Shown here: piece after piece, positions 4,315 to 29,177 of the stretch | Position numbering within the stretch: position 1 is the first letter of the stretch | Layout: each line of letters begins with the position of its first letter | Assembly: GCA_903889795.1 (NCBI GenBank) | Contig: CAISYW010000202.1 | Coordinates: 1-35,623, forward strand | DNA length: 35,623 nucleotides | Reading direction: 5' to 3' | From: an uncultured Chlamydiae bacterium | GTDB taxonomy: Bacteria; Chlamydiota; Chlamydiia; Chlamydiales; SM23-39 | The notes under the pieces: model-generated | The model's database searches: none | The model's input: the letters and a program-made list of their open reading frames with translations, nothing else | What the model was told of the DNA's origin: nothing | Translations under genes and position numbers: made by a program

Positions 4315-4534
4315 ACTACTATTGAAATCGTACAGAAATTTTTATGCGAGAAAAATGAAATGTTTTCCGTCTGAATATGCAAAAAAATAATTATAATACA
4401 GACAATACTTTAGAGAGGAGGGCAGGGGAAGATTTTCATGAGAAGGAAGGGTTGATCTTTCTTGCAATAAATCGCTTTCTCAAGTAAAACTACTATTTCT
4501 ATTTTTTTAAGAGCTCCTGTAGGAGTGTCTTAAT

Positions 4535-4605
4535 GCGCCTGTCGTACAATGGTAGTACAGTAGCCTTCCAAGCTACGAGTGTCAGTTCGATTCTGTCCAG
4601 GCGCT
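4535..4605 (+). tRNA. tRNA-Gly (anticodon UCC)
   Basis: Hand-folded cloverleaf: acceptor GCGCCTG/CAGGCGC, D arm GTAC-AATGGTA-GTAC, anticodon stem GTAGC/GCTAC with loop CTTCCAA, T loop TTCGATT (one U-U mismatch in the T stem). No encoded CCA. Confidence 0.85.
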
Positions 4606-4649
4606 AGTGTTTAACGCAGACGGGGATTGTCCCTGTCGATCATAAGAAC

Positions 4650-5480
4650 ATGAGGAGCATGGGTTTGGCTACAGCAGAGCAATACGAAGTAGCAGTAACA
4701 ATTAAGGGTTTGATCGAGTCTGGGGCCCATTTTGGCCATCAAACACGTCGCTGGAATCCAAAAATGCGTCGCTTTATTTTCGAGGAGCGCAACGGGATTT
4801 ACATCATCGATTTGGCTAAGACCTTGCAGCAAATTCGTGCAGCAGTGTCCGTGGTTCGTGAAACGGTCAGCAAGCGAAAGTCGATTTTGTTTGTTGGAAC
4901 GAAAAAACAGGCCAAGATTGTCATTAAAGATTGCGCGGAAGAGTGCGGTGAGTTTTATGTATGCGAGCGTTGGTTGGGCGGCACTTTGACCAATCTAACG
5001 ACGATTCGCCAATCTGTTAAAACGATGGAACGAATTGAAAAACGACTTGCGGCCGGTGGAGAAGGCTTGAAGAAGAAAGAGATTTCTCTTCAGACTAAAG
5101 AGCTTGTCAAACTCAACCGTAACTTGTCAGGAATTCGTGCCATGCGCAAGCCGCCCGGGCTCTTGATTGTCGTCGATCCGGGTCGTGAGCATATCGCTGT
5201 CGCGGAAGCCAATAAATTGGGCATTCCCGTGATGGCTCTGGTTGACACGAATTGCGATCCCGATCCGATTGATTATGTGATTGCATGCAATGATGACGCT
5301 CTTAAGAGCATCAAGATCATATTGAACGCATTGATGCAGGGGATTATCGACATTAAAAACGACAGGGATCTTCCTAGTTCGAAAGGCGATGAAGAGAATG
5401 TATCGTCCGATGAGGATGAAGATGATGATGAGGAAAGTGAAGAAGGAGAAGAGTCTCCTGATGACAAGGGTGGGAAATGA
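4650..5480 (+). CDS. rpsB: 30S ribosomal protein S2
   Basis: The HFGHQTRRWNPKM signature and overall S2 blocks are present. The stop overlaps the tsf start (ATGA). Carries an acidic C-terminal tail. Confidence 0.95.
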   Translation: MRSMGLATAEQYEVAVTIKGLIESGAHFGHQTRRWNPKMRRFIFEERNGIYIIDLAKTLQQIRAAVSVVRETVSKRKSILFVGTKKQAKIVIKDCAEECGEFYVCERWLGGTLTNLTTIRQSVKTMERIEKRLAAGGEGLKKKEISLQTKELVKLNRNLSGIRAMRKPPGLLIVVDPGREHIAVAEANKLGIPVMALVDTNCDPDPIDYVIACNDDALKSIKIILNALMQGIIDIKNDRDLPSSKGDEENVSSDEDEDDDEESEEGEESPDDKGGK

Positions 5481-6325
5481 GGGAAATCACATCTGACATG
5501 ATTAAGGAGCTTCGGGAACGAAGCGGCGTAGGAATGGGAAAGTGCAAAGAAGCGCTTGTCCTCGCTGAAGGCGACATGGAAAAAGCGATCGATATTTTGC
5601 GCAAGTCTGGTTTGGCTGCGGCCGTTAAAAAAGAGGGTCGCGAGACAAAAGAGGGGATGATTCAGACGGCGGATGATCGGTCTACTCTCGTGATTGCTGA
5701 AGCGAATGCGGAGACGGACTTCGTTGCGAAAAACGATCGGTTTAAGCATTTTCTTTACGACTGTGTCAAGCAGGCGCTTGAAACAAAGCCTAAATCTCTG
5801 TCGGATTTTCTTCTTCAGCCCTACTTCAAAGATAAATCAATCACTATCGATCAGTACCGAAATTTGGTTATTCAAGCTCTTGGTGAAAATATACAGCTAA
5901 AACGGCTGGAGATTGTTCACAAGCACCCCAATTGCTCGTATGGAATTTATTCCCACATGGGCGGTAAGTTAGTTGTTGTCGTCGAAATGGAAGGTGCTTC
6001 CGATCAAGAGGGGATAGCTAAAGAAATTGCGATGCATGTGGCTGCGGAAAATCCTGATTATTTGAAGCCAGAAGAGATTCCGGCGCATGTATTAGCTCGT
6101 GAAGAAGAGATTGCGCGCTCGCAAGTCCAAGACAAACCGGCTAATATTGTCGATAAGATCGTCGCCGGCAAGTTAAAAGCGTATACGGATCAGGTTTGTC
6201 TCGTTCACCAAAAATATGTGAAAGATAATAGCGTGACAATCCAGCAATTTCTCGATGTCTGTTCGAAGAAGTTAGAAAAAAAGTTCTCGATTCGCTGTTT
6301 CTGGCGTTGGAAAGTCGGTCAATAG
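5477..6325 (+). CDS. tsf: Elongation factor Ts
   Basis: N-terminal UBA-like block ITSDMIKELRERSGVGMGKCKEAL and EF-Ts core blocks (AETDFVAKN, HVAAENP). Translationally coupled to rpsB. Confidence 0.95.
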   Translation: MREITSDMIKELRERSGVGMGKCKEALVLAEGDMEKAIDILRKSGLAAAVKKEGRETKEGMIQTADDRSTLVIAEANAETDFVAKNDRFKHFLYDCVKQALETKPKSLSDFLLQPYFKDKSITIDQYRNLVIQALGENIQLKRLEIVHKHPNCSYGIYSHMGGKLVVVVEMEGASDQEGIAKEIAMHVAAENPDYLKPEEIPAHVLAREEEIARSQVQDKPANIVDKIVAGKLKAYTDQVCLVHQKYVKDNSVTIQQFLDVCSKKLEKKFSIRCFWRWKVGQ

Positions 6326-6382
6326 TGTATCCGTGTAAATTCCTCGATGTTTATCATCGGGGAATTTTCTTCAATAAATTTA

Positions 6383-6418
6383 ATACCATGAACCTTTGGC
6401 TTCATGGTATGATTTTCT
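6383..6418 (+). terminator. Rho-independent terminator candidate downstream of tsf
   Basis: Perfect 10-bp stem ATACCATGAA/TTCATGGTAT with an 8-nt loop, followed by GATTTTCT, about 57 nt after the tsf stop. Confidence 0.5.
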
Positions 6419-6521
6419 CAAGTCCATTTTCGCTGGGTTATGAATATATTTCTGATTCTTTGACTTTGTTGAGGGATTTACGGCGCGACGGACTTATTTT
6501 CAATGAACGAGTGGGTGTATT

Positions 6522-7076
6522 ATGAGCAATATCGATGCGCAAATTAAAGCCGCGATGCAGGCTGTTTTAGATCACCTCAAAGGTGAGTTAAGGAGTCTCA
6601 GGACGGGACGGGCCAATTCAGCAATGTTGGACAAAGTGCAGGTTGAGGTTTATGGCAATCATATGCCGATAAAAAATCTCGCCAGTGTGACTGTTCCTGA
6701 GTCGCGTCAAATTTTAATCTCTCCTTTTGATGCTAGTTCGATTCATGCGATTGCTAAGGCGATTGACGCTACAAATATCGGTCTGCACGCTGTTGTAGAC
6801 GGCAAGGTTGTGCGTGTACACGTCCCCCCGATGGATGAGACCATCCGCAAGCAAATTGCCAAGCAGTGCAAGGAATTGGGTGAAAAATCAAAGATCGCAA
6901 TGCGTGATGTTCGCCGTAAGTATAACGAATTGGTGCGTAAGCAAAAGGCTGACGGCGTAATTCCGGAAGATCTCATGAAAAAATATGAAAAGACTGTTCA
7001 GGATTTGACAGAACGTTTCTGTAAGGATATCGATGCGGTTTGTGCAGATAAAGAAAAAGAGATCATGACTGTTTGA
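6522..7076 (+). CDS. frr: Ribosome recycling factor
   Basis: 184 aa, with typical RRF blocks (LRTGRANSAMLD, VEVYG, IRKQIAK, RDVRRKYNE). Confidence 0.95.
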   Translation: MSNIDAQIKAAMQAVLDHLKGELRSLRTGRANSAMLDKVQVEVYGNHMPIKNLASVTVPESRQILISPFDASSIHAIAKAIDATNIGLHAVVDGKVVRVHVPPMDETIRKQIAKQCKELGEKSKIAMRDVRRKYNELVRKQKADGVIPEDLMKKYEKTVQDLTERFCKDIDAVCADKEKEIMTV

Positions 7077-7269
7077 TTTTTTGGCGAAGTTCGTATGTCA
7101 TTGTTATGTATGGACTTCAATGTTTTGCTTAGATGGTTTGGCCGGTTTTTTTCTGGGGGTTGATGATCCTGTTTTTTTTCACATTTGCGGAAAATGACAT
7201 TGATAGTTTAAGATTGATAGCGTTTTTCATAGAGCCCTGAAGATAGAATTAAGGGTAGTGTTGTTAATT

Positions 7270-7344
7270 GGCCCCATCGTCTAGTCCGGCCTAGGACACC
7301 AGATTTTCATTCTGATAACACGGGTTCGAATCCCGTTGGGGTCA
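7270..7344 (+). tRNA. tRNA-Glu (anticodon UUC)
   Basis: Acceptor GGCCCCA/TGGGGTC, D region TCGTCTAGTCCGGCCTAGGACACC (close to E. coli tRNA-Glu), anticodon loop TTTTCAT, T arm CGGG-TTCGAAT-CCCG. Confidence 0.9.
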
Positions 7345-7358
7345 AATTTTTGAGTTAC

Positions 7359-7430
7359 GAGACTTTAGCTCAGTGGTAGAGCATCTCACTTTTAATGAGA
7401 GGGTCGTTGGTTCAAATCCAACAAGTCTCA
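7359..7430 (+). tRNA. tRNA-Lys (anticodon UUU)
   Basis: Acceptor GAGACTT/AAGTCTC, D arm GCTC-AGTGGTA-GAGC, anticodon stem TCTCA/TGAGA with loop CTTTTAA, T arm GTTGG-TTCAAAT-CCAAC. Confidence 0.9.
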
Positions 7431-7619
7431 ACTTTATAAAAGAATTTAGTTTTCACGACTAGATTTTATCTAAAATTTTATTCTTAATAAATTCAGACAA
7501 GCTTTTTAAATATAATATATGTTTTCATGGATTTTAAAAAAAAAATTAAATATAACTAAAAGAAGCGGAAATTTTCTAAAAAATAAATTTACTTAATACT
7601 AAAAATTATTTGGTTTTTT

Positions 7620-8390
7620 ATGATTTATGATGTAACAATTAAGTCTCACGAGAAAGATTCATACAAATTAGACTTAGTCTTAGATTCTCTAGTCCTATTG
7701 AATCCTCAACCAAATTATATATATATAATTTCACCTAGTGGTTTTCGACCTAATCATAGCTTTTATAGAAAAAAAATTATTTGTTTAAAGGATGATGAAG
7801 TAACGCCTTTTATTGATCGCGCAAGAATTTCAGTTATGCCAAATTGGGTCTGGACTAATTTAGTGTCATTAACGCAAAATTTCACTGAAAATGATTTTTA
7901 TCTCGACGTTCAATCGGATGTGTTTTTTTTGAAACAGATTAATTTATTCGATGAACTAGGGCGGCCGAAACTATTTAAAACTACATCTAACGAAGCTAAC
8001 AACAATAATGGGGAGAGCTCATATTTCAGATTTAGCAAGGAGATGTTTAGTGTAAATAAGATTACTGATGGTGATTCGTATATCATCGATTACACGATGT
8101 ATAATAAAACGATTGCCAAAAAAATTTATAGTAAATACCGTTCAGTTGAAGATATGCTGGAAGCTGCATATAAAGTTATCGATGAAAGTCGATTTCCAGC
8201 TGATGGAGAAATTTTCGGTAACTTCGTAGAAAAGTTTTTTCCTGATTTTTATTGTATTACTAGAGAAATAAATCATTGTTTTTCGGGTGTACGAAGTGGT
8301 GAGGGAAGAAGGTCTACTGTACTTGCATATATAAACAAGTGTAAGCAATCTTCGTTTATGAATTCCTGCGCCTTTCACGATTGGAAATAA
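7620..8390 (+). CDS. Hypothetical protein, possible GT-A-like nucleotide-sugar transferase
   Basis: 256-aa AT-rich ORF starting at ATG 7620. The block NWVWTNLVSLTQNF-x6-YLDVQSDVFF weakly resembles the region around the DxD motif of GT-A-type transferases. Composition becomes GC-richer in the last ~35 codons. Confidence 0.55.
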   Translation: MIYDVTIKSHEKDSYKLDLVLDSLVLLNPQPNYIYIISPSGFRPNHSFYRKKIICLKDDEVTPFIDRARISVMPNWVWTNLVSLTQNFTENDFYLDVQSDVFFLKQINLFDELGRPKLFKTTSNEANNNNGESSYFRFSKEMFSVNKITDGDSYIIDYTMYNKTIAKKIYSKYRSVEDMLEAAYKVIDESRFPADGEIFGNFVEKFFPDFYCITREINHCFSGVRSGEGRRSTVLAYINKCKQSSFMNSCAFHDWK

Positions 8391-8391
8391 T

Positions 8392-8576
8392 ATGACGGTT
8401 TCTGAAGCCAAACGAATGAGAGTTCTGGAATCTTAAAATGCCGCTCTGCTGGAGGAAAGAGGTATGTTGAGGAGTGGCGAGAAGAATCCAATGAATATCG
8501 TCCGCACAGTTCGCTGGGAGGGAAAGAGCCTTGTGAAGTAGCCAGAAGCGAAGAAAAAAGAGCGAAAATATCCTGA
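8392..8576 (+). pseudogene. C-terminal remnant of a DDE (rve-type, IS3/IS481-like) transposase
   Basis: The frame ending at TGA 8574-8576 reads YVEEWREESNEYRPHSSLGGKEPCEVA. This is the W-x3-YN-x2-RPH-x2-LGG-x-P signature found at the C-terminus of integrase-core transposases. The upstream piece (MTVSEAKRMRVLES) is in a different frame. No catalytic or N-terminal part is present. Confidence 0.6.
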
Positions 8577-8860
8577 ACCTCTATTACTAATCCACTCGTC
8601 AATTAAGTGACAAAAGGCTTGCTGTGCCTTTGCCATATTGATCCTCCCTCGTCAGCCATAGTTCTGCTATGGCCTTCATCCTTCGGACCGCTGCACTTCA
8701 ATCTGGACAAGGCTGCGGATTCGCACGAGAAGGTCCAGTGGACCTTCGCAGTGGAGAGCAGGTGAACAAAGCGAACCGGCCCGAAGATTGTGGCAAGCCG
8801 ACTCAGTCCAAAACCGATTTCTAAAGCATGTTCGGTATAGAAAAGCTTACAATCGACTTT

Positions 8861-9736
8861 CTAACTTTTTTTGCTATCTGCCGCTTTAATAGATTTGATG
8901 ATGTTCTCAATTAAATTGTTTAAATTTTTGTCATTATAAAAAACGCAATTACATGGAATTTTTAGATTTTCTGCGTAACAGTCAGGTTTGTTATTTCCAA
9001 ATGCAATAATTACTTTTTCTTTGTCATTTAATATTTTTTTAGTTTGCATAAATGCAAATGGCCCTGTGTTTCTTGCTAAAATAAATTTGCATTTTTCAGC
9101 TAGCCAACTGATTTCATTTAAATCACAATCATTAGTCTTGATTATTTCAGATGTATTAACAATGTTTTTTGCTGTTACACGAGAATAAGAGGTTAAAATA
9201 ATTCTTATATTTGGAAATTCATTTGTTATTGCAGAAACGATCGGATCTAAATTATCTCCTAAGTTTGTTTGACCTGAATGAACAGGACCGTTAACAAAAA
9301 TTATAGAATTTAAGTAATCAACTGGATAATTTGTAGGAATATCGAAAAATTTATAGTCAATTTCAGGTATGTAATACTCAGGATCTTTTAAAATTAGTTT
9401 TTTTTTGGTTATGCTTTCAAGGAATTTATATATTAAGGAAAATAGCCGATGATATTCCGTAAGGTACATTCCTGATCTATTTGGAAGATTTGCAATCCAT
9501 GTATTAATGAAAATGTTATTATTATCAATGTGATGAGTTATTCTCGGCTGCAAAATTTTATCAAATTCGACTAATGGTAAGTATTTAGCTGGCAAATCTA
9601 ACAACAATTTTGGGCCGTGATGATGCATCAAGCTATAATTAAATTCAGGAATTTGATCAATTATATCTTTTATAAACCATTTAGATTGAAATTGATCGCC
9701 TTTGTGCCAGTTATTGAAAAAAGTTATATTATACAT
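8861..9736 (-). CDS. Hypothetical protein, possible GDP-sugar (fucosyltransferase-like) glycosyltransferase
   Basis: 291-aa Asn/Ile/Lys-rich ORF. Its ATG directly abuts the TAA of the upstream methyltransferase gene. Weak motif resemblance to GT11-type motifs (HKGDQFQ near the N-terminus; DLNEISWLAEKCKFILARNTGPFAF near the C-terminus). Confidence 0.6.
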   Translation of the reverse strand: MYNITFFNNWHKGDQFQSKWFIKDIIDQIPEFNYSLMHHHGPKLLLDLPAKYLPLVEFDKILQPRITHHIDNNNIFINTWIANLPNRSGMYLTEYHRLFSLIYKFLESITKKKLILKDPEYYIPEIDYKFFDIPTNYPVDYLNSIIFVNGPVHSGQTNLGDNLDPIVSAITNEFPNIRIILTSYSRVTAKNIVNTSEIIKTNDCDLNEISWLAEKCKFILARNTGPFAFMQTKKILNDKEKVIIAFGNNKPDCYAENLKIPCNCVFYNDKNLNNLIENIIKSIKAADSKKS

Positions 9737-10957
9737 TTAAATACTTATTATTTCAAAATTTGGACAGGGAACTATAAATTTTCCACCGTTGCGCAAATAT
9801 TCCTGTTCGCGCTCAATAAATTCATTAATAAAATGCCAGGGCAGAACTAATAAGTAATCCGGCTTTGCTTTGCGCATATCTTCTTCAGAATAGATGGGAA
9901 TATTTGTGCCAACAGTTTTTAAACCGTACTTATATGGACTTCTTTCAGCAATTCCTTCAATCAGAGTATGGTCAAGATTGAAATACTGCAATAACGTATT
10001 TCCTTTTGTTGATGCTCCATAACCCCAGATTTTTTTACCTTTTTGCTTTTCGTTATAAATAAAATCGTAGGTCTGTTTCTTTAATTTTTGAAGTTTTTCA
10101 TAAAAAGCAGCCCAAATCTCAGGGGTGTTATAATTATTGGTTTTTTCATATGCCAATATTGAATTAACCCTAAAACTACAAACGTCGCGGTTTGGCTGAG
10201 TGCTAAACTTTTTAAGATTTCCTGAGTCCTTCATCGCATATACTCTAAATGACCCGCCATTAATGTCGTTTAGTTGGCAATCTACGATTTTAAATTTGTT
10301 CTTTTCAAAAAGATTTTTTATTGATGTTAATGTATAGTAGTAAATGTGTTCGTGACAAATATTATCAAAAGCCATCTGATCAATCATCAGAGGTGAGTAA
10401 CTCATCTGAACAACCATTAACCCATCATTTTCCATGACGCTATAAACATCAGAAAGAAATTTTGAGGGATCTTCCAAGTCATAGAACATGGCAATAACAG
10501 TGACTATTTTTGCCTTCCGCGCTCCTTGTTCTGATTTTTTATATGCATCTGCAGAAAAATAATCTTGAATAATTAGATCTGCATGGCAACGTGATTCTTT
10601 GACATAACTATCCTCAACGGGATCGACTCCAATGCGAATACAATCCTTTGGCACAAAGCTAAGAAGAGTTCCGTCATTGCAGGCGATGTCGAGCCATACA
10701 TCCTTCCTTTCTAATTTGATCAAACTGCAAACTGAATTAACAATGCTTTTCAATTCAGTGCGCATTGTTTGATTAATTCCTGATCGATACCAGTACTTGC
10801 CATACATTGCATCTTTCGGGGCGGCTTTTTCAAGCCTCACTTCTGATGTTGCTTCATCAAACATCATTTTCATTTCGACTTTTCCGCATCGGGGAAATTC
10901 ATTAACATGAAGAAAATCGGAAACATATAGTTTTCCCAATGAAAAAAATTCTTTCAT
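9737..10957 (-). CDS. SAM-dependent NDP-hexose C-methyltransferase family protein (TylC3/NovU-like)
   Basis: SAM-binding block LDIACNDGTLL, YWYRSGINQTM, and C-terminal HEHIYYYT ... INGGSFRVYA blocks characteristic of this family. The N-terminal Cys4 zinc ribbon of the family appears to be lost. Confidence 0.7.
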   Translation of the reverse strand: MKEFFSLGKLYVSDFLHVNEFPRCGKVEMKMMFDEATSEVRLEKAAPKDAMYGKYWYRSGINQTMRTELKSIVNSVCSLIKLERKDVWLDIACNDGTLLSFVPKDCIRIGVDPVEDSYVKESRCHADLIIQDYFSADAYKKSEQGARKAKIVTVIAMFYDLEDPSKFLSDVYSVMENDGLMVVQMSYSPLMIDQMAFDNICHEHIYYYTLTSIKNLFEKNKFKIVDCQLNDINGGSFRVYAMKDSGNLKKFSTQPNRDVCSFRVNSILAYEKTNNYNTPEIWAAFYEKLQKLKKQTYDFIYNEKQKGKKIWGYGASTKGNTLLQYFNLDHTLIEGIAERSPYKYGLKTVGTNIPIYSEEDMRKAKPDYLLVLPWHFINEFIEREQEYLRNGGKFIVPCPNFEIISI

Positions 10958-11004
10958 ATTTTTCCTTTTATTATTTCTGATATTGTTTGTTGTGTATTAT
11001 TTAA

Positions 11005-11259
11005 CTAATTTTTTCCGTATAGTTTAGTTTTTCCTTGCTTGTATAGTTTTTGCGGTTGTTTTGTAATTATAATATTATTTATTAGTTCGTCAATTTCTTG
11101 AATGAGGTCATTCCTCTGTTGGTTACATATATTAGTTAGTCTGGTTGCTTGAGCTAACTGGGCGTCAGTGGCGGCAGGTTCTCTTTTAATGTCTTCAGCC
11201 ATCCAAATTCTTATATTTACCACAGTTAGTTTGTCGATAAGATTAGCTATTGTTTCCAT
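11005..11259 (-). CDS. Small hypothetical helical protein
   Basis: ATG at 11259 (the track ORF starts at TTG 11280). It overlaps the last 17 nt of gmd and has the same AT-rich composition, sitting inside a tightly packed operon. Motif L-x3-N-x3-W-x2-ED-x2-R (LTVVNIRIWMAEDIKR). Confidence 0.45.
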   Translation of the reverse strand: METIANLIDKLTVVNIRIWMAEDIKREPAATDAQLAQATRLTNICNQQRNDLIQEIDELINNIIITKQPQKLYKQGKTKLYGKN

Positions 11260-12277
11260 GGGTACTCTTCTTTTTTTCAAAATTACACATATCTATTATT
11301 AGTTCATCGAATGAAATTCTTGGTTTCCATCCAAGGACATGTTCAGCGCGTGAACAATTTGCTGATAAGAATCTCATTTCCAATGGCCTAAATAATTCCG
11401 ATGAAATTTTTATTATTACATTCCCCGTTTCTTTGTTTAAGCCCACTTCATTAATTTCTTCACCTTGCCACTCAAGATCAATTCCATATATTTTACAGCA
11501 TTTCTCAGCAAATTCTCTTACCGTGTGTTGAGCGCCTGTAGCGATTACGTAATCATCTGCACTATTTTGTTGGAGCATTAACCACATGGCCTCAACAAAG
11601 TCGATTGCATGCCCCCAGTCTCTTTTTGCATTTAAATTTCCTAGAACCAGTTCGCTCTCTTTATTTATAGAAATATTATATAAAGTGTTTGTTATCTTTT
11701 TTGTTACAAACTCGAGTCTGCGTCTCGGAGATTCGTGATTAAATAAAATTCCATTAACTGCATATATTCCATATTTTTCCCTATAGGTTCTTGTCATCCA
11801 ATATGCGTATACTTTTGCACAACCATAGGGGCTGAGAGGGTGAAAGGGGGTCGTTTCACTCTGAGGAATTTCTTGTGCATGACCAAACATTTCTGCTGAC
11901 CCGGCCTGATAAAATTTAATATCTTTCATTTTATTGAGAATTTTAATGGATTCTAGGATTCGTATAGGTCCAAATGCTAGGGTATTAGAGATCTCTTCGG
12001 GCTCTATAAAAGATACTTGAGCATCGCTTTCAGCGGCTAGGTTATAAATTTCCTGCGGATTTATATCGTGAATTAAATCAGTAATGTCAGTTGTTCTGTT
12101 TAAGTTGCCGCAATGAAGCTGAAAATTGTTATTGTTAATAATGTCTTGTAACCAAATTGTTTTTTGAGTATTTAGGCTTCTTATTAGTCCGTGAACTTCA
12201 TATCCTTTATTTAATAATAATTCAGCAAGGTAGGAACCATCCTGCCCTCCGACGCCAGTTATAAAAGCTCTTTTCAT
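11243..12277 (-). CDS. gmd: GDP-mannose 4,6-dehydratase
   Basis: ITGVGGQDGSYLAELLLNKGYEVHG, GSAEMFG, SPYGCAKVYAYW..YRE and ILFNHESPRR blocks are GMD hallmarks (Ser/Glu and Tyr-x3-Lys). Confidence 0.85.
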   Translation of the reverse strand: MKRAFITGVGGQDGSYLAELLLNKGYEVHGLIRSLNTQKTIWLQDIINNNNFQLHCGNLNRTTDITDLIHDINPQEIYNLAAESDAQVSFIEPEEISNTLAFGPIRILESIKILNKMKDIKFYQAGSAEMFGHAQEIPQSETTPFHPLSPYGCAKVYAYWMTRTYREKYGIYAVNGILFNHESPRRRLEFVTKKITNTLYNISINKESELVLGNLNAKRDWGHAIDFVEAMWLMLQQNSADDYVIATGAQHTVREFAEKCCKIYGIDLEWQGEEINEVGLNKETGNVIIKISSELFRPLEMRFLSANCSRAEHVLGWKPRISFDELIIDMCNFEKKKSTHGNNS

Positions 12278-12481
12278 ATAATGCTTTTTTTAATTTATGT
12301 TCAGGATCAGACGTTTGGTTGACAATATTTATTCGTAAGTATTTATCAGTTTCAAGCAATCAAACTATGCTGTTTTCTTATATAACTTCTTTTTAAAATA
12401 AATTTGCAAGTTTATTAGTATTTTTTAGAAACAATTCGATAATTTTTTCTGAGATTGAGTCGTCTTGGAAATATAGGAATA

Positions 12482-12583
12482 ATCGTCAATAGAGGTTGAC
12501 GATATACTGGGCGCGGGTGGGTTCTTAACTTTGAGGTGCAAAAGATGCCGATTAAAAAGTTAAAGACCTATCCGCGCTCAGTA
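12482..12583 (-). terminator. Two hairpins downstream of clpX (candidate terminator / island boundary structure)
   Basis: Long imperfect hairpin at 12505-12583 (arms TACTGGGCGCGG/CCGCGCTCAGTA plus inner CTTAACTTT/AAAGTTAAAG). It is followed on the - strand by ATCGTCAA-6nt-TTGACGAT (12482-12503). Only a weak U-tract. Confidence 0.35.
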
Positions 12584-12623
12584 TAGAAGATTAATAAAGC
12601 AAAGCAAGTTTCCCAGCATCGCC

Positions 12624-27315: not shown

Positions 27316-27422
27316 AGAATCTCCAGAATATTTTTTGAACTTTTATTCTATCTCCCCTCAGAATTAAACTCATCAATCAAAAAGAGATTTTCAGATAAAA
27401 GTTTTTTTTGGTAGGGGTTGGC

Positions 27423-28523
27423 ATGGGTGTATACGGCAATTATCCTGATCTGTCTTCAGTTCGACGGGTTCTCGTTGTAAAGTTGCGTCATTTGGGAGAC
27501 GTCTTACTGACGAGTCCGGTGTTTACTTCTCTCAAGCGGGCGCTGCCGCATGCGGTCATCGACGCTTATATCTATCGAGAATCTCTTCCGATGCTTGAGC
27601 ATCATCCTGCGATCTCTGAAATTCTTTTGTACGACCGGGAATGGAAGAAATTGGGGTGGTTCGAGCGCTTCAAACACGAGGCGGCCAATTTGTGGCAAAT
27701 CCGCAAAAACAGCTACGATCTTGTAATTAATCTCACTGAAGGAGATCGGGGCGCTTGGGCGGCTCGCTTCAGCAATGCGGGGGTGCGTGTGGGAATTGAT
27801 CGCCGCAAGATTTATACCCATGTCGTGAAAAATGGTCCCTCGCCTCGACATAATGTAGAAAAGCAACTCGATGCTCTACGGCGGATCGGCATCCGGCCTA
27901 CTTTTGAAGAGAAGAAACTTATTTTGGCGATTCCCAATGAGGCGAGAGAGTCCGTCCGTAAGAAAATGTTTTGGGAACAGTTCATTTTGATTCACCCAAC
28001 CTCGCGATGGCGTTTTAAATGTTGGCCAAGCCGCAATGTCGCTGCTCTTTCGCAGAAATTGATTGATCAGGGACAGCGGCTCGTCTTTACTTCGGGACCC
28101 GATTCGGACGAGAGGGCGATGGTCGAAGAAATTGTGCGCTTATTGCCCAATGAATCTATTTGCAATCTGGCCGGTAAAATTTCATTGCAGGAACTCGCCG
28201 CACTGATTGAGCGATGCACTTTGATGCTTTGCGTCGATTCAGTCCCTTTTCACATCGCGAGCGCCCTGATGGCTCCGGTCGTAGCGCTTTTTGGTCCGAC
28301 ATCGGACATTACTTGGGGGCCATGGATGAATCCCCGTGCTCGAGTGATTGCGGCAGAGATGAGTTGCCGTCCCTGTTATCTTGATGGCTGCGGAGGGAGT
28401 AAGATATGCGAGTGTTTGAATGCCATTTCTATCGAGAGGGTTATGTCAGAGCTTGAAATCCTCGCCAAAATAGGAGCGCCTCGCTTGGGGATCGTTGATG
28501 AGTTGATCCACAGTCCCCGATAG
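27423..28523 (+). CDS. Glycosyltransferase family 9 (heptosyltransferase RfaF/WaaC-like)
   Basis: ATG 27423 (the track ORF starts at TTG 27408). N-terminal RVLVVKLRHLGDVLLTSPV block and C-terminal LCVDSVPFHIASAL..PVVALFGPT and CRPC blocks of GT9. The 3' end overlaps lptB. Confidence 0.75.
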   Translation: MGVYGNYPDLSSVRRVLVVKLRHLGDVLLTSPVFTSLKRALPHAVIDAYIYRESLPMLEHHPAISEILLYDREWKKLGWFERFKHEAANLWQIRKNSYDLVINLTEGDRGAWAARFSNAGVRVGIDRRKIYTHVVKNGPSPRHNVEKQLDALRRIGIRPTFEEKKLILAIPNEARESVRKKMFWEQFILIHPTSRWRFKCWPSRNVAALSQKLIDQGQRLVFTSGPDSDERAMVEEIVRLLPNESICNLAGKISLQELAALIERCTLMLCVDSVPFHIASALMAPVVALFGPTSDITWGPWMNPRARVIAAEMSCRPCYLDGCGGSKICECLNAISIERVMSELEILAKIGAPRLGIVDELIHSPR

Positions 28524-29177
28524 CAATACTTTGCCTTCCTGAATCAAATAGCTCCGATGGACAATTGAGAAAATCTCTCGGGCGTTATGGTCGGTAATCA
28601 AAACGCTGATCCCCTTTTTTAGCAGGTGTCGGATCAAATTTTTTACATCCTGTACTGCCAAGGGATCGATATTTGCAAACGGTTCATCGAGCAAGAGTAA
28701 AGAGGGCTCTGTGACGAGCGAGCGGGTGATTTCGAGCCTTCTTCGCTCGCCACCCGAAAGTGACGCCGCTTTTTTGCTGCGCAGATGGTCGAGATGGAGT
28801 TCGTTGATCAGTCGATTGAGCCGCTCATTTTGTTCTTTCTTGGGAAGAGAAAGAGTCTCGAGGATGCAGAGGATGTTTTCTTCGACGGTGAGATTTCTGA
28901 ATATTGAGGGCTCCTGGGCAAGATATCCGAGACCCAGCTTGGCTCGGCTGTGAATCGGCATCCCTGAGATGTTTTCTCCTTTAAAGAACACTTCTCCCTC
29001 ATCAGGGCGAATCAGTCCGATCGTCATGTAAAATGCTGTCGTCTTGCCAGCTCCGTTAGGGCCGAGAAGGCCTACTGCTTCGCCGGTGTTAACTTGAAAG
29101 GAAAGTCCATTGACGACCGCTTTGCCGCCATATTGTTTCATGAGGTTGTGAACTTCGAGAAGAGGGGGAATTGTCAT
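28446..29177 (-). CDS. lptB: LPS export ABC transporter ATPase LptB
   Basis: Walker A GPNGAGKTT, signature LSGGERRRLEI, Walker B LLLLDEPFA, H-loop ITDHN, and an LptB-type C-terminus YFGEDFKL. Confidence 0.9.
   Translation of the reverse strand: MTIPPLLEVHNLMKQYGGKAVVNGLSFQVNTGEAVGLLGPNGAGKTTAFYMTIGLIRPDEGEVFFKGENISGMPIHSRAKLGLGYLAQEPSIFRNLTVEENILCILETLSLPKKEQNERLNRLINELHLDHLRSKKAASLSGGERRRLEITRSLVTEPSLLLLDEPFANIDPLAVQDVKNLIRHLLKKGISVLITDHNAREIFSIVHRSYLIQEGKVLLSGTVDQLINDPQARRSYFGEDFKL

Follow-up and report, generated by a model that had tools for sequence, protein, structure and literature searches.

A probable laterally acquired surface-glycan cassette of aquatic-phage character beside clpX in an uncultured chlamydial lineage

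The lipo-oligosaccharide (LOS) of chlamydiae is usually described as a minimal, conserved assembly of 3-deoxy-D-manno-oct-2-ulosonic acid (Kdo) and lipid A, and that of Chlamydia itself is Kdo-only. The gtrABC serotype-conversion cassettes of Shigella and Salmonella are small, AT-rich and phage-related, sit beside a tRNA gene, often with insertion sequence (IS) debris, and combine a lipid-linked glucose, a flippase and a periplasmic GT-C glycosyltransferase with prophage att and int traces. The closest analogue to the pathway proposed below is the guanosine diphosphate (GDP)-virenose branch put forward for Coxiella burnetii, in which the GDP-mannose 4,6-dehydratase (Gmd) CBU_0689 works with the TylCIII-like C-3 methyltransferase CBU_0691 (PMC3539893; PMC3204966), and which has itself been demonstrated only in part. 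T4-like cyanophages such as S-SCSM1 carry "cell-wall synthesis and modification" clusters of Gmd, epimerase/reductase, and fucosyltransferase-type and other transferases, whose function is putative (PMC9602691). Here we describe a five-gene island of about 5 kb, positions 7431–12586, lying between tRNA-Lys and clpX in a contig of an uncultured Chlamydiae bacterium (GenBank assembly GCA_903889795.1, contig CAISYW010000202.1; the whole stretch of 35,623 nucleotides (nt) that was analyzed is called the window). We conclude, with a probability of about 0.68, that this interval encodes a surface-glycan cassette which was acquired laterally from an aquatic-phage-associated gene pool and still functions.

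As in Coxiella, the island pairs Gmd with a TylC3-family enzyme in an obligate intracellular host, and the predicted product in both cases is a 3-C-methyl-6-deoxyhexose for lipopolysaccharide (LPS). Coxiella possesses in addition a GDP-fucose-synthase-like reductase (CBU_0688) and a large O-antigen region, whereas the island has no reductase, spans 5 kb, encodes other transferases and appears to be of phage-like origin. The phage clusters, which are the very contexts in which relatives of the island's C-methyltransferase, of its small DUF4254 protein and of its two transferases (ORF1 and ORF2; ORF, open reading frame) occur, run to 10–15 genes and include a reductase, an aminotransferase and transferases of families GT10, GT11, GT25 and GT2; the island, in contrast, amounts to a subset of five genes, carried on a cellular chromosome. 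It shares with gtr its small size, AT-richness, phage relationship, neighboring tRNA gene and IS debris, but lacks int and att and would rely on a cytoplasmic nucleotide-sugar pathway with GT-A and GT-B enzymes that are soluble. The island and its left flank comprise the following features, by position in the window.

7269–7345, plus strand: tRNA-Glu(UUC), called by ARAGORN and Rfam.
7359–7430, plus strand: tRNA-Lys(UUU), called by ARAGORN and Rfam; its 3′ end is the left island boundary.
7431–7619, no strand: very AT-rich spacer upstream of ORF1, with 7/60 G+C at 7501–7560.
7620–8390, plus strand: ORF1, 256 residues, predicted GT-A-like sugar or sugar-phosphate transferase (AlphaFold model, fold matches).
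8391–8860, no strand: ORF1–ORF2 spacer, not AT-rich, with an IS remnant (rve_3-like fragment inside).
8861–9736, minus strand: ORF2, 291 residues, predicted GT-B-fold glycosyltransferase, GT9-like (AlphaFold model, fold matches).
9737–10957, minus strand: putative nucleoside diphosphate-hexose C-methyltransferase, 406 residues (Methyltransf_23 and Methyltransf_14).
11005–11259, minus strand: DUF4254 small protein, 84 residues, ATG at 11259 (PF14063).
11243–12277, minus strand: Gmd, 344 residues, first gene of the operon (TIGR01472, PF16363).
12278–12476, no strand: AT-rich DNA ahead of Gmd, presumably holding the promoter; identity to the sister locus L081 about 90%.
12477–12586, no strand: GC-rich hairpin element, 110 nt, a strain-specific insert separating the island from the clpX stop.

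The preliminary description, made by reading the letters of the window, had called this interval an AT-rich accessory island, and with the window (35.6 kb) rather than the whole genome as compositional background, tests of G+C, of G+C at third codon positions (GC3) and of tetranucleotides all mark it as a strong outlier and the sole one present. Its G+C is 0.334 against 0.461 for the remaining window. In 500-nt segments from 7501 to 12500 the value runs from 0.27 to 0.38, with an exception of 0.43 at 8501–9000, and the lowest segment, 0.27, lies directly 3′ of tRNA-Lys; flanking segments show 0.41–0.55 overall, 0.41–0.47 upstream of tRNA-Lys and 0.44–0.49 in clpX. The five island ORFs have a GC3 of 0.22–0.32 as compared to 0.477 ± 0.038 for 21 other genes of the window (z −4.2 to −6.7), and tetranucleotide L1 distances over 2-kb segments reach 0.35–0.52 in the island against 0.210 ± 0.022, with a maximum of 0.266, outside it (z 6.7–14.5). 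Hand counts of G+C given earlier (7/60, 12/60 and 15/60 in the island and 30/60 in clpX) were exact, and the five ORFs that had been noted as rich in Asn, Ile and Lys are real, their translations being enriched in these residues and in Phe and Tyr. It had also been remarked that G+C recovers only about 120 nt before clpX. This is borne out, the rise coming at about 12500, with some 125 nt left to the clpX stop (12624), because the lineage-specific, GC-rich hairpin element of 110 nt (12477–12586) sits there; with this element discounted, AT-rich DNA reaches to about 40 nt from clpX. The word "uncharacterized" fits the content in part: Gmd, the C-methyltransferase and the DUF4254 protein (three of the five) belong to named families, whereas ORF1 and ORF2 match no Pfam family.

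The origin of the genes is indicated by the taxonomy of their best matches, the record of which the preliminary description had proposed and which places the nearest relatives of four of the five outside the Chlamydiae. As far as sequence comparison goes, all but Gmd have their closest relatives outside the chlamydial clade in AT-rich aquatic contigs that are phage-like wherever the flanks were inspected. Identity to homologues in phage contigs is 63–75% for the C-methyltransferase, 57–74% for DUF4254 and 31–55% for the transferases, and the carrier contigs have a G+C of 0.27–0.40, like the island. In IMG/VR, relatives of ORF2 occur in at least 83 contigs and those of ORF1 in 10. A metagenome scan with the C-methyltransferase returned 436 relatives, the best of them 72–75% identical (loci L183–L188; loci in other contigs are given L numbers). 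The flanks of L183 encode a T4-type clamp loader, RegA, CobS and Hsp20, while L088, L188 and L190 represent one phage type with DnaE, a UvsX/RecA recombinase and a Cas4-like nuclease. In L272, a 118-kb contig with Baseplate_J and WhiB, an ORF2-like gene (39% identical), DUF4254 (73%) and the C-methyltransferase (69%) lie within 4.6 kb, and the same trio lies within 12 kb of 29%-GC DNA in the 735-kb megaphage LR756501. Gene order is likewise shared: the arrangement Gmd, DUF4254, C-methyltransferase, ORF2-like gene is repeated in L188 and L193, and from DUF4254 onward in L194. Gmd abuts the ORF1 relative at 11 of 13 non-chlamydial loci and stands 2.5–3.5 kb upstream of the ORF2 relative at most ORF2 loci. 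A neighbor-joining tree built from 82 C-methyltransferases groups the chlamydial sequences with L183–L187 as their sisters, inside the clade of phage contigs. Finally, the AT-rich L236 (Ga0209777_10027446), with a C-methyltransferase 63% identical to that of the island, and the sister chlamydial locus L081/L181 (Ga0209777_10005401) come from one metagenome, which puts cassette carriers and the chlamydia in a common habitat.

Two of these contigs call for a separate remark. L189 and L272, both of 118 kb, belong to a phage type with Baseplate_J, WhiB, GroES (Cpn10) and ThyX that also has eukaryote-type Anp1 mannosyltransferase-like genes, which accompany the trio of DUF4254, C-methyltransferase and ORF2-like genes. 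A scan of the pooled contigs further gave a Glyco_transf_15 match, which was not assigned to a contig. L189 was considered as a giant-virus contig on account of its Anp1 and GT15-type genes and rejected as such, the syntenic L272 with Baseplate_J and WhiB being a tailed phage.

A recurrent feature of the phage loci is the pairing of the small protein with the ORF2-type enzyme. DUF4254 and DUF6165 are linked to each other by jackhmmer, and a small protein of one or the other kind lies directly upstream of the ORF2-like gene at 42 of the 75 loci that have an upstream ORF (84 loci in total), a statistic that is approximate owing to the small search space. Individual pairs can be seen in L083, L088, L164, L149, L157 and L158, at about 9640–10000 in each. 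This recurrence points to joint action of the small protein and the GT-B enzyme, perhaps as a two-protein unit. The phage-borne pair would be accompanied by Gmd, and often by the C-methyltransferase and an ORF1-type GT-A gene. We offer tentatively, and with more doubt than confidence, the broader idea that DUF4254/DUF6165 and an ORF2-type GT-B constitute a conserved two-part glycosyltransferase system, found mainly in large aquatic phages, that would build C-branched 6-deoxyhexose glycans on virions or infected cells, and that a minimal version was captured by the chlamydia to place a phage-type sugar on its own envelope.

Whether the phages themselves were the donors is less certain than the resemblance. 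It is possible, if rather doubtful in our view, that the donor was an AT-rich bacterium, for example one that such phages infect or one sharing a eukaryotic host with the chlamydia, and that the phage copies are parallel captures. Glycan clusters of phages are generally regarded as host-derived auxiliary genes, Pfam describes DUF4254 as a bacterial family, the Gmd sequence shows no particular closeness to phage copies, and one contig, L271, carries SmpB together with an ORF2 relative. On the other hand, all close relatives with inspected flanks are phage-like, the C-methyltransferase tree nests the chlamydial clade among phage contigs, and no cellular contig above 60% identity was identified, most of the 80 metagenome loci being unclassified. 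The preliminary description had named an AT-rich co-resident of amoebae as donor; the evidence favors AT-rich aquatic phages or their hosts instead. For the cassette as a phage-associated acquisition, then, we picture an origin in the AT-rich aquatic phage gene pool, directly or via bacterial hosts, entry between tRNA-Lys and clpX in an ancestor shared by at least three sister lineages of chlamydiae, and subsequent retention by purifying selection without compositional amelioration.

On the minus strand, the genes form a compact four-gene operon in the order Gmd, DUF4254, C-methyltransferase, ORF2, toward which ORF1 converges from the plus strand. Gmd scores 434.2 bits against TIGR01472 (cut-off 415) and E 1.6e-122 against PF16363, matches solved GDP-mannose 4,6-dehydratases at E 1e-108 (2z1m, E 1.6e-108), and retains readable motifs, GVGGQDG (GxxGxxG), GSAEMFG (S-x-E, with Ser for the usual Thr) and YGCAK (YxxxK); judged by these scores and motifs, it is a bona fide member of the GDP-mannose 4,6-dehydratase family. 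Its stop overlaps the DUF4254 gene by 17 nt. The product of the latter scores 40.8 bits against PF14063 (cut-off 27) over profile positions 3–62 of 144 only and is thus a short form; the same 84-residue gene is called in public assemblies, and the literature on DUF4254 yielded two incidental mentions only.

The stop of the C-methyltransferase gene abuts the start codon of ORF2. The enzyme matches Methyltransf_14 (PF08484) at E 2.3e-45 and Methyltransf_23 (PF13489) at E 3e-13, and its sequence matches in the PDB are the D-mycarose 3-C-methyltransferase 4rv9 (E 3e-34 over residues 47–403), TcaB9 and the sugar 3-C-methyltransferase 5t64. It is, by these matches, a TylC3/TcaB9-type sugar C-methyltransferase. 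The comparison with TylC3, TcaB9 and KijD1 (4rv9, 3ndi and 5t64) extends over the full length at E 3e-34 to 1e-23 and includes the same Methyltransf_23 plus Methyltransf_14 architecture. Unlike them, the island enzyme shows neither the N-terminal zinc domain (no Methyltransf_13 match at E ≤ 0.1) nor its four cysteines (one Cys in the first 60 residues), and whereas they act on deoxythymidine diphosphate (dTDP)-sugars in antibiotic pathways, a GDP-sugar is the probable substrate here.

The two transferases belong to unclassified families and are placed by predicted structure. Scanned singly, the 19 members of the ORF1 family gave no Pfam or NCBIfam match, none to Stealth_CR1–4 among them, and no match to PDB sequences. 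An AlphaFold model from the family alignment (predicted local distance difference test score (pLDDT) 93.7) has its best PDB folds in the Stealth phosphotransferases CpsY and GNPTAB (template modeling (TM) score 0.55–0.64; Foldseek against 8j2n, E 1.3e-8, TM 0.60/0.64), followed slightly lower by GT6 and GT8. The likeness to Stealth and to the retaining GT-A enzymes of GT6 and GT8 is one of fold, together with a DxD-like motif (D-x-Q-x-D) formed by the invariant D96, Q98 and D100; ORF1 has no CR1–4 or GT-family sequence match and is far shorter than GNPTAB. Its family is small, with 303 representative clusters matching the profile among 1.84 billion, and ORF1 found no match in cultured or deposited phage genomes.

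For ORF2, none of 31 family members matched Pfam at E ≤ 1, PF01075 (Glyco_transf_9) included, and neither NCBIfam nor the PDB sequences gave a match. Its model, also from the family alignment (pLDDT 93.0), resembles WaaC, WaaF and a Veillonella GT9 enzyme best (TM 0.53–0.57, 11% identity), with E 1.7e-7 and TM 0.57 against 6dfe in Foldseek and nearly all of the top 10 belonging to GT9. Invariant residues are G13-D14, DLNEIS (205–210) and G225-P226, and the segment DLNEIS...GRNSGP resembles GT9 signature motifs. ORF2 and WaaC/WaaF are alike in length and have a G-D pair near the N-terminus, and a motif in the C-terminal half, L-x-E-[IL]-x-x-L...G-x-[ND]-[ST]-G-P, lines up between ORF2 and the GT9 enzyme encoded in the window itself; aligning the ORF2 family with that enzyme by hhalign covered residues 202–230 only (29 columns) at a non-significant E of 0.19. 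ORF2 further differs from GT9 in its linkage to a GDP-6-deoxyhexose donor pathway rather than to adenosine diphosphate-heptose. Profile "hits" of both families to the TATA-binding protein and to eS7 in the PDB were set aside as composition noise, and neither protein contains a long hydrophobic run. The models thus predict a GT-B fold nearest GT9 for ORF2 and a GT-A-like fold nearest Stealth, GT6 and GT8 for ORF1.

From these enzyme families and folds we infer a pathway, including its GDP-linked substrate, the position of the methyl group, the transferase steps and the acceptor. Gmd would convert GDP-mannose to GDP-4-keto-6-deoxy-mannose, and the TylC3/TcaB9-type enzyme would add a methyl branch beside the keto group, most likely at C3, to give a GDP-linked 3-C-methyl-6-deoxyhexose precursor. 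A 4-ketoreductase would be supplied from elsewhere, or the keto-sugar would be used unreduced. A gene of the short-chain dehydrogenase/reductase epimerase/dehydratase family stands at 207–1187 of the window, 6 kb from the island, with host composition and no score that reaches an NCBIfam cut-off; its product might be the 4-ketoreductase that the pathway calls for, or might have no part in it, for example as a uridine diphosphate-xylose-synthase-like enzyme. A bifunctional Gmd has reportedly been found in a chlorovirus and would be another possible source of reduction. ORF2, probably with the DUF4254 protein, and ORF1 would then transfer the methylated sugar and one further residue to an envelope glycoconjugate, most plausibly the LOS core.

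The choice of acceptor draws on the gene content around the pathway. The island contains no wzx, wzy, wzm or wzt, that is, no flippase, polymerase or ATP-binding cassette exporter, and the window encodes a heptosyltransferase III-like GT9 enzyme (27408–28523; TIGR02201, 248 bits) and lptB (28446–29177), both of host-like G+C. Given two transferases, no polymer or export genes, and a nearby heptosyltransferase and lptB, decoration of the LOS core is the most economical interpretation. We think it unlikely that the cassette instead glycosylates another target, be it peptidoglycan, a small molecule or a protein (an adhesin or another surface protein, modified by O- or N-glycosylation). Among the fold matches of ORF2 is TibC, a GT9-fold heptosyltransferase that acts on protein, and TylC3-type methyltransferases are best known from natural-product sugars, but no polyketide, non-ribosomal peptide or carrier genes lie nearby, and genes for LPS core synthesis and export share the window, which is not decisive.

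How the cassette reached its site can be considered apart from where it came from. An integrase-mediated island or prophage remnant, inserted site-specifically at the 3′ end of tRNA-Lys, seems to us quite improbable. Such an event would fit the start of the island at the base after tRNA-Lys, exactly where the divergence break against the sister lineages falls (the DNA is near-invariant relative to L086 and L087 through the final tRNA-Lys base, and identity collapses beyond it), as well as the transposase-type fragment in the island and the phage-borne relatives of its genes. Yet the island has no integrase or recombinase ORF and no phage structural or replication genes; the window holds no second copy of the tRNA-Lys 3′ end at up to three mismatches; no flanking direct repeats were found, nor were inverted ones; and the rve_3 fragment, which L087 lacks, is a piece of an IS-type DDE transposase and lies inside the island instead of at its edge. 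The T4-like and jumbo phages that carry the relatives are, moreover, lytic as far as known. The identity break at the end of the tRNA shows where the conserved core stops and not how the island arrived, and illegitimate or flank-mediated recombination into the intergenic spacer is as likely as an integrase route. Integration at the tRNA end, as suggested in the preliminary description, accordingly stays circumstantial.

The spacer at 7431–7619 aligns badly with the sister lineage, and several metagenome assemblies break there. Within the ORF1–ORF2 spacer, the "transposase scar" noted earlier does exist as an rve_3-like fragment, but it is weak, comprising 23 residues from the C-terminal end of the domain (about 8463–8531, plus strand; E 7e-5, under the Pfam cut-off). 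As it is confined to the window's lineage and absent from L087, it would be a later arrival and not the vehicle of the island. The same spacer is GC-rich at 8600–8820, with a possible minus-strand ORF of 67 residues behind a GGAGG site, and its L087 counterpart (4443–4908) is unrelated in sequence and includes another palindromic piece (TATACTGAGC...). A scan of the spacer 8391–8860 against Rfam gave no match. Consensus promoter and terminator sites, the presumed promoter region upstream of Gmd included, were no commoner than in shuffled sequence. The 110-nt element near clpX is missing from L081 as a clean indel and occurs once in the window; it folds into a near-perfect 82-nt hairpin plus a small hairpin at −55 kcal/mol, and could be an insertion resembling miniature inverted-repeat transposable elements or repetitive extragenic palindromic sequences, or an acquired clpX terminator. 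Searching the island for RNA genes with Rfam at gathering and E ≤ 1 thresholds gave tRNAs only, plus noise on the hairpin. Only the window's lineage has the IS fragment and the hairpin element.

The coding content, by contrast with these private insertions, is held in common. All five genes occur at the same site in three lineages (the window, L081 and L087/L268, the last two from public metagenome assemblies, in which the organism of the window itself also occurs) in the layout rpsB-tsf-frr-tRNAs-ORF1-ORF2-C-methyltransferase-DUF4254-Gmd-clpX-clpP-tig. Sequence divergence between the lineages, with synonymous divergence as dS and nonsynonymous divergence as dN, is as follows.

Core genes: amino acid identity 97–99.8%, dS 0.11–0.37.
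C-methyltransferase: amino acid identity 93–94%, dS 0.42–0.47.
DUF4254: amino acid identity 96% for the 84-residue form (88–92% by tblastn), dS 0.23.
Gmd: amino acid identity 84–89%, dS 0.36.
ORF1: amino acid identity 82%, dS 0.72, dN/dS 0.14.
ORF2: amino acid identity 71%, dS 0.92, dN/dS 0.19.

The frames are intact in the three lineages and dN/dS lies between 0.07 and 0.19 for all five genes, which are therefore maintained by purifying selection. The dS of Gmd, DUF4254 and the C-methyltransferase (0.23–0.47) is near the core range, and the values support the view that evolution is most rapid in the two transferases or that recombination has replaced part of them. Since all three lineages have these genes at the locus, with like composition, the island predates their split. 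Among 13 contigs with an exact ClpX, of which ten contexts were shown, all seven that extend past clpX have Gmd next and none has another neighbor. Look-ups with exact Frr and ClpX proteins returned island-bearing contigs or contigs cut at the boundary, and one that differs: in a 39-kb contig of ERZ1426834, with an exact Frr, a different minus-strand gene of 179 residues lies 514 nt after frr in place of ORF1. Several more assemblies are cut short here: L262 and L263 stop within tRNA-Lys or slightly downstream of it, and L261 stops in the spacer that follows. These differing or broken junctions could reflect strain heterogeneity or alternative island alleles. The gap between tsf and frr in the window, 197 nt (6325–6522), contains no pyrH, whereas the gene order in Chlamydia is tsf-pyrH-frr.

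Conservation at the locus raises the possibility that the genes are ancestral there and not acquired. They are indeed present with the same composition in three lineages, at species-level core divergence (dS 0.1–0.4), but none was found beyond this clade. A scan of genomes for ClpX returned only four chlamydial relatives, 73–82% identical (82% to an uncultured metagenome-assembled genome and 73% to one of the Parachlamydiaceae), and in the 3–10 kb inspected beside their clpX none of the island genes occurs, unrelated neighbors standing there instead. The content can to this extent be called accessory, as first supposed. In these distant relatives clpX is unlinked to frr and tRNA-Lys, and there is therefore no comparable site in them, so that the comparison of the frr–tRNA-Lys–clpX locus proposed earlier yields the island in the sister lineages and, farther away, clpX flanks that lack both the genes and the site. 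A glycan locus long resident in chlamydiae and AT-rich by nature, like many O-antigen loci, would account for the shared position and content, for the near-core dS of three genes and for the fixation in all contigs seen. We regard it as very improbable, considering that GC3 lies 15–25 percentage points from that of neighbors under the same mutational background, that the genes are not seen in the clpX flanks of the four other Chlamydiae, that identity to phage genes reaches 69–75% with a nested tree placement, and that a search of 5.8 billion proteins gave no chlamydial relative of Gmd from beyond the clade. That the ORFs are decaying remnants without function, as the adjoining IS scar and the missing reductase might hint, is hardly credible for five frames intact in three lineages with confident AlphaFold models, and is rejected on their dN/dS.

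Several points weigh against the reading of the island as a phage-associated surface-glycan cassette. A true empty site was not found, clpX being unlinked to frr and tRNA-Lys in the four distant relatives. Gmd reaches only 55–57% identity outside the clade in a search of 5.8 billion proteins, and could differ in origin from the other four genes. The relatives were sampled mostly from viral collections, and in the unbiased metagenome scan phage content was checked in a handful of contigs. In L271, a groundwater contig of 62 kb with a G+C of 0.23, the ORF2 relative (35% identical) belongs to a large glycan cluster adjoining SmpB, transketolase halves and a fused gene of two short-chain dehydrogenase/reductase domains; this contig may represent a cellular carrier, resembling the candidate phyla radiation, rather than a phage. 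As to function, the island contains no 4-ketoreductase, manB or manC; the GDP specificity of the C-methyltransferase is deduced from its linkage to Gmd in the island and in phage clusters, and its solved relatives use dTDP-sugars; ORF1 could, on its predicted fold, be a sugar-1-phosphate transferase instead of a glycosyltransferase; and the LOS core as acceptor is a guess.

Taken as a category, the island is a familiar kind of accessory element in an unusual host and nothing new; its phage-associated pedigree is unusual, and its two transferase families are unclassified. A search of the literature on Chlamydiae for Gmd or C-methyl sugars found no link. The organism of the window probably has a heptose-containing LPS core, as its heptosyltransferase gene suggests, unlike the Kdo-only LOS of Chlamydia. 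Its core genome encodes a heptosyltransferase, and the acquired island would add a deoxy-sugar with a methyl branch; the cell surface is thus likely to be more complex and to vary more than the usual description of chlamydiae would have it, and the fastest-evolving genes of the island are the transferases, as expected for surface-exposed specificity. The ORF1 and ORF2 families and the pairing of small protein and GT-B enzyme lend themselves to enzymological work and to the question of why GDP-sugar clusters occur in phages; if the idea of a captured two-part phage system is true, two new glycosyltransferase families would be defined. The island ties an obligate intracellular bacterium to a large aquatic phage gene pool, an unusual route of gene flow, and the capture of a phage system, if true, would represent rare gene flow from large, apparently lytic phages into the Chlamydiae.

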